Source: an uncultured Clostridia bacterium
Lineage (GTDB): Bacteria > Bacillota > Clostridia > TANB77 > CAG-508
Reading direction: 5' to 3'
DNA: 64,000 nucleotides
Assembly (NCBI GenBank): GCA_963556905.1
Contig: CAUWAY010000004.1
Coordinates: forward strand, 1,150-65,149
The translations under genes were made by a program, and so were the position numbers. The notes below the pieces were generated by a model, which made no database searches, was not told the origin of the DNA, and saw only the letters and a program-made list of their open reading frames with translations. This document shows positions 4,297 to 35,724 of the stretch, in pieces; position 1 is the stretch's first letter; each line of letters begins with the position of its first letter.

Positions 4297-5499
4297 ATGG
4301 AAGAAAGAAGCTTAAGAGTAGTAGGAACAGACAAAACATTTATAAATAAATTAACAAACACAATATCAAAACTACTAATACCAACACAAATTGGAATAAA
4401 TGGAGTAAAAATATCTATAAAAAGAAATGCATTATTAAAAGCATATGATGTATTAACAAATGAAAAAAACACATCAAATAAACAAGACGAAATAGAAAAA
4501 AAATATGAAGAAGCATATACTTCATATTTAGAATCATTAGACAAATATGTATTAGACACAATATACAAAAAAGTAAAAAATGAAACAGCAACAAACTTTG
4601 AAAGTATGGCATTATCACAATATTATGGAATAGTATCATTAAAAGATAAAGAATATACAGAATACAAATACAGAAAACAAAAATACTTATTAGAATTAGA
4701 CAATGAAAACGTAAAAAACTCTGGAAAAGAAAAAATGATAGAAAAATATAAAAAATTTTACATATCAAAACAAGACACTTTATATAAAGGAATATTAAAA
4801 AACTATTCAATAAAATTAGCTGATAGTACAAATGTATATGATTCAACAAAAGAATGGATATATATAAAAATATTTGACACATTAGAAGATTATATAAAAA
4901 ATATATTACCATTAAAAATATCAGACCAAAAATTAGAAACAGTAGTAAAAGAATATGAAAAATACGAAAGATTTTCAGTAGGAAAATTAGACTCAAGAGA
5001 CAACATTGAAAAAAATATGATATTATTAGGAATAAGTAGGAATTTATTCACACATAGTTTACCACTTGTTGTTGCAGAACAGTGTTATATGAAACTATTA
5101 AAAGATGCAAGATGTTTAGTACAAGATACAAAAATTGCAGCAAAAAGAGAAAAAGCATATGCAATGTTATTAACTTTAATAGAAGATTACAATATACGCT
5201 TATTAGCAACAAAAGTATATTGGGATAACTCAAAAGATAGAGAAAACTTTAAGAAATTCTATGATAAATATAAAGAAATAGAAAAACTAAAAGAAACAGA
5301 CTTTATAGAATATGTAAAACAAAAAGAGATATTATTCATAAAAGATGATATGAAAAAATTAACAAAAGAAAAAACAGACTATAGTAGAATAATTAAATAT
5401 TATAAGAGAAAATTAGTAGATTATGGAGTTATGAAAGAAATAAAATTAGGCAAATTAGAAAAAACTAAATTTACTAAAAAAGCTACACAAAAGGTTTAA
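4297..5499 (+). CDS. Hypothetical protein, Lys/Glu/Tyr-rich, predicted helical, no recognised domain
   Basis: ORF 4246..5499. Likely start is ATG 4297 (MEERSLRVV), 7 nt after GAAAGG. No TM segment and no motif I recognise. Occupies the position where phoH usually follows yqfD. Confidence 0.6.
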   Translation: MEERSLRVVGTDKTFINKLTNTISKLLIPTQIGINGVKISIKRNALLKAYDVLTNEKNTSNKQDEIEKKYEEAYTSYLESLDKYVLDTIYKKVKNETATNFESMALSQYYGIVSLKDKEYTEYKYRKQKYLLELDNENVKNSGKEKMIEKYKKFYISKQDTLYKGILKNYSIKLADSTNVYDSTKEWIYIKIFDTLEDYIKNILPLKISDQKLETVVKEYEKYERFSVGKLDSRDNIEKNMILLGISRNLFTHSLPLVVAEQCYMKLLKDARCLVQDTKIAAKREKAYAMLLTLIEDYNIRLLATKVYWDNSKDRENFKKFYDKYKEIEKLKETDFIEYVKQKEILFIKDDMKKLTKEKTDYSRIIKYYKRKLVDYGVMKEIKLGKLEKTKFTKKATQKV

Positions 5500-5556
5500 A
5501 GATTATTGCATAAATAATTGTGTTTAAGGTTATATAGAAAAGAAAGGAAACAAAAT

Positions 5557-6048
5557 ATGCCTAACAAAAATATAATAAAAAAAAGAGAAAAAGAGAACAA
5601 AAACATATCAAAAAATGAAAAAGGAATAACAATAATATCTGTTACAATAACAATAATAATACTACTAACTATATCAGGAGTAGCAATATATAGTGGAATA
5701 AGTTCAATAAAAAGCAGTAAATTTCAAAAATTTAAAATTGAATTACAAATAGTACAAGCACAAGTAAATTTATTGAATGAAGAATATAAAGAACAAATAC
5801 AAACAGGTCAAACAATATCAATAGGAAAAAGTTTAACAGAAGTAGATCAAACGAAATTAAATGAAGCATTAGCAGGAGAAAGCAGTGCAGAGTATAGATA
5901 TTTTGACACAAGTGTATTTGAAGAGCTTGGAGTAAAAGGAATAGAAAATGGATATTTAGTAAATATAAAACTAAGAAAGGCAATATCAATAGATAGCTTT
6001 GAATATAATGGAAAAAAATATAATCAAATAAGTCAAATAAAATACTAA
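5557..6048 (+). CDS. Hypothetical membrane-anchored protein with degenerate type IV pilin-like N-terminus
   Basis: ORF 5518..6048. Likely start is ATG 5557 after GAAAGGA. A 22-residue Lys-rich leader ends in KG, followed by ITIISVTITIIILLTISGVAIYSG and then an amphipathic helix. Followed by a terminator. Confidence 0.55.
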   Translation: MPNKNIIKKREKENKNISKNEKGITIISVTITIIILLTISGVAIYSGISSIKSSKFQKFKIELQIVQAQVNLLNEEYKEQIQTGQTISIGKSLTEVDQTKLNEALAGESSAEYRYFDTSVFEELGVKGIENGYLVNIKLRKAISIDSFEYNGKKYNQISQIKY

Positions 6049-6060
6049 TTCAAGCGTAAA

Positions 6061-6088
6061 ATAGCAAGAATTTCTTGCTATTTTTTTT
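6061..6088 (+). terminator. Rho-independent terminator
   Basis: ATAGCAAG-aattt-CTTGCTAT hairpin followed by a T7 run. Confidence 0.8.
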
Positions 6089-6121
6089 CATATTTGGTAA
6101 TATATATTAGGGGGAATAAAA

Positions 6122-6610
6122 ATGTATCAATTAGAATATTTAAACATAGAAGAAAACAATAAATATGAAGAAATTATAAAAAAAGTAATAACAAGATGTT
6201 TTGAAGAAGAAAAATTAAAAAATTCAAAATTATACATAAGCATAACATTAACAACTCCAGACAATATACATCAAATAAATAAACAATATAGAAATGTGGA
6301 TAGAGCAACAGATGTATTATCATTTCCAATGTTTGAAAAAGAAGAAATAGAAAAAAAAATCAAAAATAATGACTTTGAACATGAAGACATACTTGGAGAT
6401 ATAGTAATTTCAATAGAAAAGGTAGAAGAACAAGCAAAAGAATATGGACATAGCTTTGAAAGAGAATTTGCATATATGTTAGTACATGGATTTTACCATT
6501 TGATGGGATATGACCACATAAAAGAAGAAGACAAATTAAAAATGAGACCTAAAGAAGAAAATATATTAAATAAGTTAGGAATCACAAGGGAGGAAATGAA
6601 TGAAAAATAA
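6122..6610 (+). CDS. ybeY: rRNA maturation endoribonuclease YbeY
   Basis: 162 aa with the zinc-binding motif HGFYHLMGYDH. Confidence 0.9.
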   Translation: MYQLEYLNIEENNKYEEIIKKVITRCFEEEKLKNSKLYISITLTTPDNIHQINKQYRNVDRATDVLSFPMFEKEEIEKKIKNNDFEHEDILGDIVISIEKVEEQAKEYGHSFEREFAYMLVHGFYHLMGYDHIKEEDKLKMRPKEENILNKLGITREEMNEK

Positions 6611-7748
6611 ATCAACAATCATATTATTATCAATTTTATCAATTCTTATAATAGTAGCAGGAGGAGTGCTAATATATAAAGTAATAACAAATGAAAAAGA
6701 AACAATAAATCATCAGACAACAGATGAACAAATACCAGATAAAGAAGAAGAAAAACCAATTATTGTAGAACAAAAAGAACCTGAAATTTTTTCAGGAAAT
6801 GATAGACCGATAGCTGTAATGATAGATAATCATAAAGGAGCATGGCCACAAGCCAATTTAGAAAAAGCATATATAGTTTATGAAATAATAGTAGAAGGTG
6901 GAGAAACAAGACTAATGGCAGTATTTAAAGGACAAAATTTAGACAAAATTGGACCAATAAGAAGTTCAAGACACTATTTTCTAGATTATGCCTTAGAAAA
7001 TGATGCAATATATGTTCATCATGGTTGGAGTCCACAAGCACAAAATAACATAAAAACACTAGGAGTAAACAACATAAATGGAATTCAAGAAAGCTCAAAA
7101 GATTTTTGGAGAGTAAAAAACAAGTCAACACCACACAATTTATTTACAAATACAGAAAGTATACTAAAAATTGCAGAAAGAAAAGGATATTCTACAACAT
7201 CAAGTAAAAAAAGTATACTAAAATATGTAACTAATGAAATAAATTTAGGGGAAAAATATGGTGAAAATATATCAGAAAATCCAGAGCAAAGTGTAGAAAA
7301 TACAACTATACAAACAAATACAAGTGAAATAGAAAATAAAACAAAAGCAATAAATGCAACTACAATTACAATACCACATTCATCTTTACAAACAGTAAAA
7401 TATGAATATAATGAAGAAACAAAAAGATATACAAGATATGCAAGAGGAAGGCTGCAAATAGACTATATAACAAATGAAGATGTTACAACAAAAAATATAA
7501 TAATAACAATGTGTGATAATTACACACTAGAAGACAGCGAGAAAAAAGGAAGACAAGGATTAAAAAATATTGGAGAATTTGATGGATATTATATTACAAA
7601 CGGAAAAGCTATACCAATTAAATGCATAAAAAACTCTAGAGAAGCACAAACTATTTACAAAGATTTGACAGGAAACGAAATCCAAGTAAATGACGGAAAC
7701 ACTTTTATAAATATTTGCCCAGCAGATGCAAAAGTTGTAATAGAATAA
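6600..7748 (+). CDS. DUF3048 domain protein (YerB-like), membrane-anchored
   Basis: N-terminal TM segment, then DRPIAVMIDNH...YEIIVEGGETRLMAVF...SSRHYF, characteristic of DUF3048. Confidence 0.75.
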   Translation: MKNKSTIILLSILSILIIVAGGVLIYKVITNEKETINHQTTDEQIPDKEEEKPIIVEQKEPEIFSGNDRPIAVMIDNHKGAWPQANLEKAYIVYEIIVEGGETRLMAVFKGQNLDKIGPIRSSRHYFLDYALENDAIYVHHGWSPQAQNNIKTLGVNNINGIQESSKDFWRVKNKSTPHNLFTNTESILKIAERKGYSTTSSKKSILKYVTNEINLGEKYGENISENPEQSVENTTIQTNTSEIENKTKAINATTITIPHSSLQTVKYEYNEETKRYTRYARGRLQIDYITNEDVTTKNIIITMCDNYTLEDSEKKGRQGLKNIGEFDGYYITNGKAIPIKCIKNSREAQTIYKDLTGNEIQVNDGNTFINICPADAKVVIE

Positions 7749-32501: not shown

Positions 32502-32518
32502 TGTCGAATTAAGTCGAA
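32502..32518 (+). promoter_or_regulatory. Tandem Spo0A-box-like heptamers
   Basis: TGTCGAA (32502-32508, exact 0A-box consensus TGNCGAA) and AGTCGAA (32512-32518), 10-bp period. They end 9 nt upstream of the -35. Confidence 0.45.
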
Positions 32519-32527
32519 CGATTTTTC

Positions 32528-32556
32528 TTGACAATAATATTAAATGATGTTAACAT
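32528..32556 (+). promoter_or_regulatory. Sigma-A type promoter of the sortase operon
   Basis: TTGACA (32528-32533), 17-nt spacer with TG at 32548-32549, TAACAT (32551-32556). Confidence 0.55.
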
Positions 32557-32642
32557 AGTTATAGAATTTAATTCAAACAAATTCAATCAAAAATTATTTC
32601 GAAATAAATCAAAAACTCAACAAAGAAGGTGATAGTAAATTA

Positions 32643-33230
32643 ATGTTTAAATTTACTAAAACTGGTATAAACCGTACAATTGTTATTATATCAATAATTC
32701 TATTTTGTTGTATTCAAATATTTATATATAAAATAACAAAGCCGATAACAAGTAAAACAAAAGAAGAAGTAGAATATATGATAAAAATTGATGAAAAAAT
32801 TATACCAGAACAAAAAAATAGTATAGCCCCAAATATAGAAATATGGCAAATAGAAATACCAGCAATATCATTAATAGCCAATATAGCAGAAGGAACAGAA
32901 AAAGAAACACTAAATAAATACATAGGGCATTTTGAAGAAACTCCAATAGAAGAAGGGAACATATGTCTTGCAGCGCATAATAGAGGATATGAAGTAAATT
33001 ATTTTCAAAATCTAAAAAAATTAAAAGAAGGAGAAGAAATAATATATAGACATGGAAAATTCGAAAAGACATATGAAGTAACAAAAAATAAAATAATAAA
33101 AGACACAGACTGGGAAGAACTAGAAAACACAGATAAAAACACAATAACACTAATAACATGTGTAGAAAATGAGCCAAATTATAGAAGATGTGTTAAAGCT
33201 ATAGAAAAAGACCCAAACTATAATTATTAA
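32643..33230 (+). CDS. Sortase-family transpeptidase
   Basis: N-terminal TM segment, LAAHNRGY (His), TLITC (Cys), YRRCVKA (Arg). Confidence 0.85.
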   Translation: MFKFTKTGINRTIVIISIILFCCIQIFIYKITKPITSKTKEEVEYMIKIDEKIIPEQKNSIAPNIEIWQIEIPAISLIANIAEGTEKETLNKYIGHFEETPIEEGNICLAAHNRGYEVNYFQNLKKLKEGEEIIYRHGKFEKTYEVTKNKIIKDTDWEELENTDKNTITLITCVENEPNYRRCVKAIEKDPNYNY

Positions 33231-33302
33231 GTTAATAATTCCCAAAAGGATTATTATAAATTTCATATTTTTCTAAAAAAACAAAAACAAGGAGGAATTT
33301 TA

Positions 33303-33899
33303 TTGAAGAAAAAAAGTAAAAAAACAAAAACATTAGTAATTGCACTAATAACAATATTAGCTTTAGGATTAGGAGGTGTAACATATGCAAAATATGCATC
33401 AAAAATAGATGTATCAGCTCAATTAGATATAGCAAAATGGGTATTTAAAGTAAATGGAAGTACAGAGCAAAAGCAAACAATAAATTTAACAGAAACATTA
33501 AAACCAGATCCATCATTACTATCAACTGGAAAAATAGCACCAGGAACTCATGGAGAATTTAAAATAAAAATTGATGCAACAGGAACAGATGTAGGAATGA
33601 ACTATGAAGTAAAAATAAAAAGTCTATCTGAAAAACCAAAAAATTTAGTATTTTCATGTGATGGAGTACAACTTGAAAATTTTACTGACACCACTACAAT
33701 AGGAGGAGGTCAAATATTTACAACTCAAGAAGACAAAACAAAAACATTTACAATTGGCTGGAAATGGGATTATGAAAGCAAGAATAATGGAAGAACGATA
33801 GAAGAAAATGACATAGTAGATACACAAGATTCACAAAACATAACAGACTATAGATTTGAAATAATATCAACAGGTGTACAAACACCTATAAACTATTAA
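33303..33899 (+). CDS. Secreted or signal-anchored protein P1, TasA/camelysin-like (tentative)
   Basis: TTG start 7 nt after AAGGAGG. Signal sequence MKKKSKKTKTLVIALITILALGLGG, then VTYAKYASKIDVSAQLDIAKWVFKV, KIAPGTHGEFKIKI, KPKNLVF, IGWKWDYES. No LPXTG. Confidence 0.7.
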   Translation: MKKKSKKTKTLVIALITILALGLGGVTYAKYASKIDVSAQLDIAKWVFKVNGSTEQKQTINLTETLKPDPSLLSTGKIAPGTHGEFKIKIDATGTDVGMNYEVKIKSLSEKPKNLVFSCDGVQLENFTDTTTIGGGQIFTTQEDKTKTFTIGWKWDYESKNNGRTIEENDIVDTQDSQNITDYRFEIISTGVQTPINY

Positions 33900-34024
33900 A
33901 AAAGTAATAACAGAAAAATATGAAAAAAAGAAAAAAGTAAAGGAGGAATTATAATATAAAATTAAAAATTAATAGGAAAATACCTATATTAGCTATTTTT
34001 ACTATAATTATAATAATTCTATCT

Positions 34025-34441
34025 ATGCAAACAACATTTGCCAAATATATATCAAAAATTAAAACTATAGGAACAATAGAAATAGCAAAGCCAATATTTA
34101 TAGTTGAAGGAACCGAAAAAACAAAAATAAATGAAATAAATAATATAGGCTTTTATGAATTCAAAGTAAAAAATTATGACGATACACAAATAAGTGAAAC
34201 AGACTTTTTATACACTATTGAAATCATGTCAGATATATGTGAAAATGTAAAATTTGAATTATATAATGAAGATAAGCCAATACCATTAAAAAATCAAAAA
34301 ACAGATACTTTATATATTTCAGGAAATGTAAAAACAGAACAAAACTATAAATTAAAGGTAACATATGATAAAAAATTAGGAAACAATGGAAAAAACATAC
34401 TAGAAGAAGTACAAGTTAAAGTTCATGCAGAACAAGGATAG
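34025..34441 (+). CDS. P2, paralogue of the P1 N-terminal module; N-terminus probably extends upstream to about 33956 through a non-ATG start
   Basis: MQTTFAKYISKIKTIGTIEIAKPIFIVEG aligns with P1. The frame is open back to 33941 and encodes a signal anchor (KLKINRKIPILAIFTIIIIILS) behind AAAGGAGG, but contains no ATG, GTG or TTG. Confidence 0.65.
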   Translation: MQTTFAKYISKIKTIGTIEIAKPIFIVEGTEKTKINEINNIGFYEFKVKNYDDTQISETDFLYTIEIMSDICENVKFELYNEDKPIPLKNQKTDTLYISGNVKTEQNYKLKVTYDKKLGNNGKNILEEVQVKVHAEQG

Positions 34442-34448
34442 TGAGTAA

Positions 34449-35003
34449 ATGAAAAAGAAAATAATTTTTGTAATAATAATAATTTTGATTCTAATATTTA
34501 TAATTCTAAATTTTTATAATTCAAAAACAAATATAATAGAAGATATAGAAATATTCGGAATGTGGGAAGATATCATAAAAAAAGACAAAATTGAAAATAA
34601 AAAAAGAAATGAATATAACATAGATGAAAGCAAAGAAATAAATATAGACATAATGAGTACAATTCAAAATGGAATAAATCCATATAATAAAAATAAAATA
34701 TACAAAAAAATAGCACCAGGTTGTAAAGGAAACTTTATTTTAAAATCAAATAAACCATTAAGTTTTGATAATAAACTAATAATAGAAGAAATGTATCAAA
34801 AGCCACAAAATTTAAAATTTATTATAGATAATACTTCATTTAGCACTATACAAGAATTGCAACCTAAAATAACTAAAATTCTTAGAAAAACAAATAGAGT
34901 AGTAATAGAATGGGAATGGAAGTATGAGTCAGGTAAAGACGAACAAGACACTCAAGAAGGAGAAAACTTAAAAGAATATAAAATTATAATAAAAGTATTA
35001 TAA
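34449..35003 (+). CDS. P3, signal-anchored paralogue of the P1 body
   Basis: MKKKIIFVIIIILILIFIIL TM segment. KIAPGCKGNFILKS, KPQNLKF and IEWEWKYES match P1. Confidence 0.7.
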   Translation: MKKKIIFVIIIILILIFIILNFYNSKTNIIEDIEIFGMWEDIIKKDKIENKKRNEYNIDESKEINIDIMSTIQNGINPYNKNKIYKKIAPGCKGNFILKSNKPLSFDNKLIIEEMYQKPQNLKFIIDNTSFSTIQELQPKITKILRKTNRVVIEWEWKYESGKDEQDTQEGENLKEYKIIIKVL

Positions 35004-35050
35004 AATATATGAAAGGAGAAAAGCTAGAATAAAAAGCTAATATGTGAAAA

Positions 35051-35200
35051 ATGAAATTAAAAAATGCAGTTTTAATAATTATAATTTGTACATTAATAAT
35101 AATTTTTACGCCAAAGTCATATGCCAAATATGTTTTTGACTATACGCAAAAGGCTATAGAAATAGAAATAACTTCTGAAAATTTAGTAAAAAATGAATAA
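35051..35200 (+). CDS. P4, 49-codon mini-paralogue (signal anchor plus shared N-terminal strand only)
   Basis: Not in the ORF track. My translation is MKLKNAVLIIIICTLIIIFTPKSYAKYVFDYTQKAIEIEITSENLVKNE, and it shares the [YF]AKY...IEI motif with P1 and P2. No obvious SD. Confidence 0.45.
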   Translation: MKLKNAVLIIIICTLIIIFTPKSYAKYVFDYTQKAIEIEITSENLVKNE

Positions 35201-35382: not shown

Positions 35383-35724
35383 ATGGAATCAAGCGATATG
35401 AAAAATATGGTAGTTCTAAAAAATCTTCCATCTAATATGGTAGAAGAAGCGATAATAATTTTTAAAGAAACGCAAAAAATTAAAGAGAAAGAATTGGTAG
35501 ATAAAAATTTAAAAATCAATATTAGTCAAGAAAAAACAAAATCAAAAGAATATATTTTAAAAGAAGCAGAAATGCTTGTAACAGATTATATCAATAAAAT
35601 AGAAAAACGAAAAAATTCCAATAAAAATAAAGAAAGTACAAGCAAAAAATATAAATATTTAAAACAATATAGTATTGTTTCTACTATACTTTTAATTGTC
35701 AGTTTAATAATTAATTTCATATAA
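35383..35724 (+). CDS. Hypothetical tail-anchored membrane protein (113 aa)
   Basis: AAAGGAG 8 nt before the ATG. Lys-rich soluble part and a C-terminal TM segment (IVSTILLIVSLIINFI). Confidence 0.55.
   Translation: MESSDMKNMVVLKNLPSNMVEEAIIIFKETQKIKEKELVDKNLKINISQEKTKSKEYILKEAEMLVTDYINKIEKRKNSNKNKESTSKKYKYLKQYSIVSTILLIVSLIINFI

Follow-up and report, generated by a model that had tools for sequence, protein, structure and literature searches.

A sortase gene beside a putative fibre operon in an uncultured Clostridia bacterium: probably two separable modules

Why would a sortase gene head an operon whose other products carry no sorting signal? The question is posed by a stretch of 64,000 nucleotides (nt; hereafter the window) from an uncultured Clostridia bacterium (TANB77; CAG-508; assembly GCA_963556905.1, contig CAUWAY010000004.1, positions 1,150-65,149 of the forward strand), in which the operon studied here (window positions 32502-35200) holds five open reading frames (ORFs): a sortase followed by four proteins, P1 to P4. 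All five were found on the + strand where a preliminary description of this DNA had placed them, including the 49-codon P4. As stated there, a canonical sorting signal (LPXTG motif, hydrophobic segment, basic tail) is missing from all of P1-P4, and the motif LPxTG itself is missing from every ORF of 60 or more amino acids (aa) across the whole window. The preliminary description took P1-P4 for TasA-like fibre subunits processed by the sortase. With moderate confidence, we favour another answer, namely that the locus consists of two separable modules: a P1-P4 fibre operon of the TasA/BsaA type and, beside it, an orphaned sortase.

The sortase and its partner in related loci

The sortase (32643..33230, + strand, 195 aa) has an N-terminal membrane anchor, and the intact His / TLITC / Arg signature reported for it is present (His in AAHNRGY, TLITC, Arg in NYRRC), with matches to Pfam Sortase (PF04203, E 2.3e-22) and to TIGR01076 (76 bits vs a cutoff of 39). 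It is unclassified, with no NCBIfam class model reaching its cutoff (class C 66/160 bits, SrtD 65/140, class E 58/160, class D 53/165, class F 15/166); class D is nearest, the closest solved structures being the class D enzymes 2kw8 and 4d70. The ratio of nonsynonymous to synonymous substitution rates (dN/dS; here and below for the window vs an 89%-identical relative, L008) is 0.28, indicating purifying selection, and because the enzyme is both intact and under such selection it still has a job.

What that job is can be approached from the neighbourhoods of P1 homologues in other genomes. The loci compared were those found by exact-protein look-up together with 80 loci from species-representative genomes, the latter found with a subset alignment (A2); ORFs were called in each locus and searched with the window proteins and those of relatives. 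As the pattern used in the 80-locus scan, [NDS]GKIAPGTxG, excludes the TGKIAPGTHG of the window, the window species lies outside the 80. The operon sequence itself was identical in independent assemblies (L090, L091), and the same arrangement was present on 22 further contigs. Sixty-six related loci could be judged for their content of sortase and of S26 signal peptidase of the archaeal/SipW type: a SipW-type peptidase without sortase was found in 33, a sortase with an adhesin in 16, a sortase alone in five (including the window), neither in 10 and both enzymes in two. The P1 homologue is therefore adjoined by a peptidase of this type in 35/66 loci and by a sortase in 23/66.

The adhesin lies between sortase and P1 in the 16 loci that hold it. 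It is a protein of 400-470 aa in syntenic sortase-type loci, with a thioester domain (TED) and SpaA domains, and in all of the roughly 20 loci its last residues are [KR]LPVTGM, with the stop codon next and no hydrophobic tail (for example L004 4647-5915 and L006 4703-5917; also L010, L018 and L025). Among its 120 closest homologues (P0295-P0414), LP[VIK]TG plus one residue forms the C-terminal end in 119, again with no membrane tail. The codons for LPVTGM vary synonymously between loci, an indication of selection on the peptide sequence; judged from these sequences, LPVTGM is a conserved tail-less sorting signal. A membrane tail reached by readthrough past LPVTGM was considered and rejected, as the gaps between TED-SpaA and P1 (12-85 nt) are variable in length. 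The only TED protein built in the canonical way, with LPQTG, a membrane segment and a basic tail (919 aa), is encoded in L048, which is one of the two loci holding both a sortase and a SipW-type peptidase.

The sortase and the adhesin also occur together where there are no P1-P4 genes. At the same chromosomal site, flanked by an HD-domain gene and a conserved 111-aa ORF, the 11-kb locus L093 encodes a sortase 56% identical to that of the window and a TED-SpaA protein (4450-6209), and P1-P4 are absent. The pair is thus an autonomous module. Loci that lack the adhesin lie dispersed over the sortase tree; the sortase-adhesin and P1-P4 modules are gained and lost independently. In the lineage of the window the adhesin gene has been lost, and the sortase now stands directly ahead of P1 at a distance of 72 nt. 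The earlier proposal that the sortase is the processing enzyme of P1-P4 does not agree with a sortase that is paired in relatives with an adhesin ending in LPVTGM, and even in a locus with no P1-P4 genes. Most likely the enzyme was orphaned by loss of the adhesin gene and does not process P1-P4; with its partner deleted in this lineage, it probably serves substrates encoded elsewhere in the genome. It is then most likely a leftover of gene loss and not a new type of signal-processing enzyme.

Signal peptides, cleavage motif and peptidase

If the sortase does not process P1-P4, another enzyme would be expected to do so. P1 (33303..33899, + strand, 198 aa) has a signal peptide ending GGVTYA/KY (slash, predicted cleavage site), an N-terminal amphipathic strand and a beta-sandwich body. 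P2 (33956..34441, + strand), a putative minor subunit, has a signal peptide ending TTFA/KY and a P1-type N-terminal strand on a distinct small beta-rich body. P4 (35051..35200, + strand, 49 codons) is a strand-only mini-protein in which a signal peptide ending KSYA/KY is followed by about 20 mature residues, the mature peptide being KYVFDYTQKAIEIEITSENLVKNE. In P3 (34449..35003, + strand, 184 aa) a P1-like body follows an N-terminal membrane anchor without the A-K-Y cleavage motif, which is also absent from P3 orthologues in both locus types. That these proteins are paralogues, as first described, is borne out by BLASTP matches between the bodies of P1 and P3 (E 5e-10 over 110 residues) and between the N-terminal strands of P1 and P2 (E 3e-5 over 31 residues).

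Sortase-type and SipW-type loci do not differ in the cleavage motif, T-[YF]-[AS]-[KR]-Y. The likeness of the signal peptide to those of SipW substrates was well founded, as the peptidase encoded beside P1 in the 35 related loci passes TIGR02228 (78-90 bits vs a cutoff of 51.85), and SipW comes second among its matches. Six loci encode the peptidase and P2 as one fused ORF (L040 8760-9536, about 258 aa; L043, L056, L061, L063 and L065), in which the signal peptide of P2 is replaced by the C-terminal hydrophobic segment of the peptidase, directly ahead of the A-K-Y site. One genome, CAKPLT01, holds both a sortase-type locus (L034) and a SipW-type locus (L085), which makes a peptidase acting in trans realistic. 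The enzyme expected to act on P1, P2 and P4 would therefore be an archaeal/SipW-type or a general signal peptidase encoded outside the window.

These data also bear on the proposal from which we started, that the sortase stands in for SipW and acts on the LPXTG-less P1-P4, by cleavage or transpeptidation, at T-Y-A-K-Y or close to it. It would account for the near mutual exclusion of sortase and SipW-type peptidase, for a window that encodes no S26 peptidase and for a sortase kept where its adhesin partner is gone. Yet the identical motif occurs in loci with SipW and no sortase, and it lacks the Leu-Pro found in every known sortase signal. A sortase-type genome has SipW at a second locus, as in L034 and L085, and in relatives an LPVTG protein is clearly the cognate substrate of the sortase. 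The Lys of the AKY motif, once suggested as part of a cleavage site or as a transpeptidation nucleophile, is not obligatory either: it is Arg in 12/114 P1 sequences, including those of eight sortase-bearing loci that form a whole subclade, where most P2 proteins have Arg as well. Direct processing of P1-P4 by the sortase is not supported by these findings; we regard it as highly improbable and as the least likely of the readings discussed here.

Three other candidate sites in P1 were considered and dropped. K77 is Lys in just 84/114 P1-family sequences and is ruled out as a universal nucleophile, the C-terminal VTGTQ, as a cryptic sortase motif, is equally frequent in SipW-type loci, and the invariant IAPGT, as a hidden sorting signal, is present in SipW-type loci as well.

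A putative fibre and its alternatives

P1-P4 matched no model in Pfam or NCBIfam, and neither P1 nor profile A1 had a significant match among PDB sequences; nor was anything found for the bodies of P1, P2 and P4 in Pfam and NCBIfam scans that included family representatives and distant relatives. A word-indexed search with the P1 domain gave 26 relatives, and an exhaustive profile search gave 6143 cluster representatives at E <= 1e-3 and 2965 at E <= 1e-10. By these sequence relations the P1 domain defines a large uncatalogued family. Many members carry it as the N-terminal domain of adhesin-like proteins of 400-3000 aa, and it also stands at the N-terminus of very large repeat-rich proteins (Flg_new, Glug; P0053, P0080, P0083, P0128 of 3136 aa and P0164 of 2694 aa). 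It was further seen in genome bins labelled Saccharibacteria/Nanosyncoccus (L066, L072, L075, L083; CPR bacteria), Gastranaerophilales (L032; Melainabacteria) and Paludibacteraceae (L088; Bacteroidota). An acidic motif, N-D-x-x-D-T-x-D (P1 residues 169-176, window 33807-33830), is near-invariant in the 114 members of the family alignment (A3), with D173 invariant; by analogy with calcium-dependent archaeal donor-strand filaments it might bind a metal ion.

The structure of mature P1, modelled from a deeper alignment, reached a mean predicted local distance difference test score (pLDDT) of 89.4, and its N-terminal strand is disordered or unpaired in monomer models. An earlier full-length model from 24 sequences (pLDDT 67, strand region disordered) had given generic beta-sandwich matches in Foldseek, which were disregarded. 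The top Foldseek matches of the mature model are donor-strand pilins: the PapG pilin domain, CS17, CfaB, the TasA fibre 8aur and AbpA 7ueg. The TasA fibre (8aur_A) stands at rank 9 (E 1.1e-2, probability 0.93, template modelling score (TM-score) 0.39), and other donor-strand pilins rank higher.

The resemblance to TasA noted in the preliminary description therefore stands as a weak match of fold to donor-strand pilins, the TasA fibre among them, while membership of the TasA/camelysin family does not. PF12389 (Peptidase_M73, IPR022121), carried by all 120 listed TasA homologues, had no match at E <= 1 in P1-P4, ten family representatives or ten distant relatives. When A3 was aligned by hhalign with 37 TasA homologues (A4), only the signal peptides aligned (probability 22%), with g-TyAKY on GGGTWAAF. 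A profile search of PDB sequences with the P1 alignment did not retrieve TasA, and local cross-searches with hidden Markov models of the two families gave at most 17 bits, with a marginal match around GK(I/T)AP. NCBIfam models of SipW-exported proteins of the TIGR04087-04090 type had no match in P1-P4 at E <= 1; the P2-like protein of one relative gave an E-value of 0.059 with the TapA model TIGR04087, which is not significant. Going by the models, P1-P4 plausibly work like TasA though they stand outside its family.

How such a fibre, secreted, made of several subunits and likely self-assembling at the surface, could be built may be envisaged as follows. A SipW-type signal peptide with T-[YF]-A at its end would anchor each of P1, P2 and P4 in the membrane, and cleavage before K-Y would free their amphipathic N-terminal strand. 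From the modelled fold we infer that the freed strand could fill the open beta-sandwich of an adjacent subunit (donor-strand exchange). P1 would then be the repeating shaft and the probable major subunit, and P3, with the same body and an uncleavable anchor, would end the fibre and hold it at the cell as its probable base or terminator. P2 and P4 would bring the strand on other bodies, the bodiless P4 of the window perhaps occupying the free groove at the distal end.

The same proteins could instead be monomeric cell- or spore-surface proteins that share a type of signal peptide and a beta-sandwich and form no fibre. The weakness of the fold matches would suit this, as would the P1-like domain at the N-terminus of 400-3000-aa adhesin-like proteins. 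The amphipathic strand, however, is common to proteins with unrelated bodies and stands alone in P4, the structural matches are mostly donor-strand pilins, and the complementary set of subunits (strand plus body, anchored body lacking the cleavage motif, strand plus other body) recurs across locus types. We consider monomeric surface proteins a rather improbable explanation.

For a fibre, the roles of the minor components can be read in part from relatives. In L001, where a SipW-type peptidase is encoded and a sortase is lacking within 8 kb, a protein with a P3/P1-like body (6869-7564) ends in LPRTG, a hydrophobic segment and a basic tail, and it would be a wall-anchored version of the base subunit. 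As the cleavage motif is absent from P3 and this paralogue carries a sorting signal, P3 could be a base subunit that accepts a strand and keeps the fibre at the membrane or wall. P2 orthologues occur in sortase-type and SipW-type loci alike, and P2 is under purifying selection (dN/dS 0.19 over 161 codons from an ATA codon at 33956). There is no ATG, GTG or TTG upstream of its signal peptide, and the first ATG of the frame (34025) falls within the signal peptide. P2 translation likely starts at this ATA, 9 nt past a strong ribosome-binding site (GGAGG). The ancestral ATG survives in a six-codon leader ORF (MKKRKK, then stop; 33920..33940, + strand), severed from P2 by an in-frame TAA at 33938-33940. 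This leader overlaps the P2 ribosome-binding site and is identical in L090 and L091; L004 and L033 read through from the same ATG. An ATA or ATT 7-9 nt past a consensus GGAGG, in place of a canonical start, is seen again for P2 in at least eight other loci of both types (L008 6251, L006 ~6680, L025 ~8610, L053 8583, L014, L016, L019 and L020). The recurrence suggests a conserved non-canonical start codon, which perhaps keeps the level of this minor subunit low.

Such irregularities could also mean that the whole operon is degenerating and has little or no function left: the adhesin and the P2 start codon have been lost, P4 has been truncated, and the sortase is kept only for substrates encoded elsewhere. 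The missing TED-SpaA gene, with 72 nt left between sortase and P1, and the in-frame stop ahead of the P2 signal peptide are consistent with decay, as are a P4 dN/dS of 0.59 and the state of P3 in the 89%-identical relative, where it is frameshifted at its KIAPGC codons in two independent samples (L008 6744-7299, L009 3849-4404). Against it, P1 (dN/dS 0.28) and P2 are under purifying selection, the ATA/ATT arrangement of P2 is shared with the other loci just listed, the length and pattern of the short P4 are kept in 14 diverged loci, and the operon is identical in the independent assemblies, with the same arrangement on the further contigs. P1, P2 and the sortase are intact in L008 and L009 despite the split P3. 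General decay is, on balance, quite unlikely.

P4 also bears on whether the sortase could be coupled to the fibre after all. In L006 an orthologue of 520 aa has an N-terminus that is matched by the window P4 (E 1.5e-7), and long forms of 440-530 aa occur in some relatives. Short forms (mini-P4, 41-55 aa), which end exactly at the end of the strand, were found in 14/22 loci with a sortase only vs 0/57 others (for example L004 7658-7786 and L028 9128-9268; also L034, L036, L038, L042, L046, L050, L051, L053, L055 and L059). They share the pattern YAKY.F.Y...AE[IV].I, and the Lys at +1 is kept even where P1 and most P2 have Arg.

A coupled sortase would join an LPxTG-ended adhesin to an amine of the fibre, such as the N-terminal Lys of P4, or would fix the fibre to the wall; the adhesin would be the adjacent TED-SpaA protein in relatives and, in the window, a protein encoded elsewhere. 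Sixteen diverged loci keep the order sortase, adhesin, P1, P2, (P3), P4, the tail-less end of the adhesin would fit an acceptor other than one in a membrane-retained pathway, and the sortase has stayed beside P1, under purifying selection, after independent losses of the adhesin. The restriction of mini-P4 to sortase loci and the retention of its Lys point the same way. But the sortase loci form one clade, so that the association with mini-P4 is confounded by descent, and SipW-type loci lacking a sortase conserve the +1 Lys just as well. An LPxTG protein is absent from the window, and the pair in L093 seems to work free of any fibre. Mutual exclusivity, the tail-less signal, the persistence of the sortase and the sortase-restricted, Lys-keeping mini-P4 leave room for a direct link between sortase and fibre, and L093 weighs against an obligatory one; we hold coupling to be unlikely. 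A more specific version would make P4 an adaptor: a signal peptidase would free its strand of roughly 20 residues with Lys at the N-terminus, the sortase would link the LPVT carboxyl of the tail-less adhesin to this Lys, and the strand would then seat the adhesin in the open groove where the P1 fibre ends. Such a combination of donor-strand exchange with sortase chemistry has so far not been described, and we think it very unlikely.

Our preference for two separable modules, one of them a fibre operon of the TasA/BsaA type, has to be held against several observations that tell the other way. Sortase and SipW-type peptidase are nearly mutually exclusive (2 loci with both vs 21 and 33; Fisher p = 8e-8, uncorrected for phylogeny), and the sortase was retained beside P1 after several adhesin losses, both of which a direct role in making the fibre would also predict. 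No S26 signal peptidase is encoded in the 64 kb of the window, in agreement with what had been said of a SipW-type enzyme. The Foldseek matches of P1 are weak (E 2e-3 to 4e-2, TM-score 0.3-0.4), and sequence homology of P1-P4 to TasA was not found beyond the signal peptide. Lastly, the P3 frameshift in L008 and L009 means that decay may have set in for part of the operon in this lineage.

Two features lie at the borders of the operon. Upstream, a promoter-like site (32528..32556, + strand) has TTGACA, a 17-nt spacer and TAACAT, with TG ahead of the -10 hexamer and 10/12 consensus positions. The "good sigma-A promoter" of the preliminary description is thus present as a site, but such matches are frequent in window DNA of 26% GC content (37 found vs 25.9 +/- 4.6 expected), which makes it plausible and not proven. 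Directly 3' of the operon lies a 113-aa ORF (window 35383-35724) with the start MESSDMKNMVVLKNLPSN and a C-terminal membrane segment. It has no Pfam match, is very strongly conserved (dN/dS 0.04) and is found downstream in every syntenic relative, ahead of an M23/M50 peptidase pair.

Comparison with known systems

The TasA/TapA/SipW system of B. subtilis (8aur; PMC9674648, PMC10151520) resembles the P1-P4 operon in several ways. The signal peptides end in small residues (GGGTWA/AF vs GGVTYA/KY), an archaeal/endoplasmic reticulum-type peptidase is encoded in the operon (for P1-P4, in relatives only), a beta-sandwich subunit has its donor strand at the N-terminus (predicted for P1), and an accessory protein, TapA there and P2 and P4 here, has the same strand on a different body. 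Unlike TasA, the P1-P4 body has neither PF12389 nor any homology detectable by hhalign outside the signal peptide, and the operon adds an anchored body-only P3, a strand-only P4 and a sortase, in a window that lacks SipW.

Another parallel is the C. perfringens operon of TasA-like paralogues, BsaA/BsaB/SipW with an adjacent srtB (PMC7395162; PMC11580942), which is likewise clostridial. In strain 13 the sortase gene adjoins subunits that lack LPXTG, and other strains have an LPXTG-bearing paralogue (PMC11580942), which the P3-like protein of L001 resembles. Genes for LPxTG proteins, SpaA-domain proteins, sortases and signal peptidases often lie near operons of TasA-like paralogues (BsaA preprint 2024-25, PMC11580942), so a sortase beside TasA-like paralogues is not the undescribed combination it was first taken for. 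The two systems differ in that P1-P4 are unmatched by NCBIfam models of SipW-exported proteins, that the sortase heads the operon here, and that relatives have a dedicated TED-SpaA protein with the tail-less LPVTGM. The isopeptide triad of BsaA (Asn strand, Glu, Lys) is not conserved in P1, where positions 36-42 are variable (T, D, E, S, Q) and Lys at position 77 is found in 84/114 sequences.

The archaeal bundling pili of AbpA (7ueg; PMC9245690, PMC9715654) are assembled by donor-strand complementation that is free of chaperones and dependent on a signal peptidase, as is proposed here for P1-P4. AbpA is among the fold matches of P1 (rank 30, probability 0.82), a weak structural similarity, and it differs in being an archaeal homopolymer with no sortase or adhesin module. 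The best matches of the P1 body are chaperone-usher pilins (PapG 2wmp, CfaB 4y2l, CS17 8ehs; probability 0.98-0.99), which are incomplete beta-sandwiches completed by the strand of another subunit. These, however, are Gram-negative, require a periplasmic chaperone and an outer-membrane usher, and have no sequence relation to P1 (TM-scores 0.32-0.35).

Sortase-assembled pili of Gram-positive bacteria can have thioester-domain adhesins at the tip, such as Cpa of Streptococcus pyogenes, and the relatives of the window similarly encode an LPxTG protein with TED and SpaA folds beside a dedicated small sortase. In contrast to those pili, the adhesin stops after LPVTGM with no hydrophobic segment or basic tail, and no LPXTG backbone pilin with a pilin-motif Lys is present, K30 and K77 being replaceable by Arg or other residues. 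The sortase misses the class C cutoff, and the adhesin is absent from the window.

Set beside these systems, what is new is a P1-P4 family with no detectable sequence link to TasA, its set of subunits, the strand-only peptide and, in relatives, a tail-less LPVTGM adhesin with its own small sortase, which departs from the textbook sorting signal. The P1-like family (about 6000 representatives) comes mostly from uncultured gut Clostridia, with some Bacilli and Saccharibacteria, and a name for it would give an annotation to many surface proteins now called "hypothetical", very large adhesins among them. If P1-P4 do form donor-strand fibres, the operon separates a shaft, an anchored terminator, a strand-bearing accessory protein and a strand-only peptide, and could show how Gram-positive fibres built without chaperones start, stop and attach.

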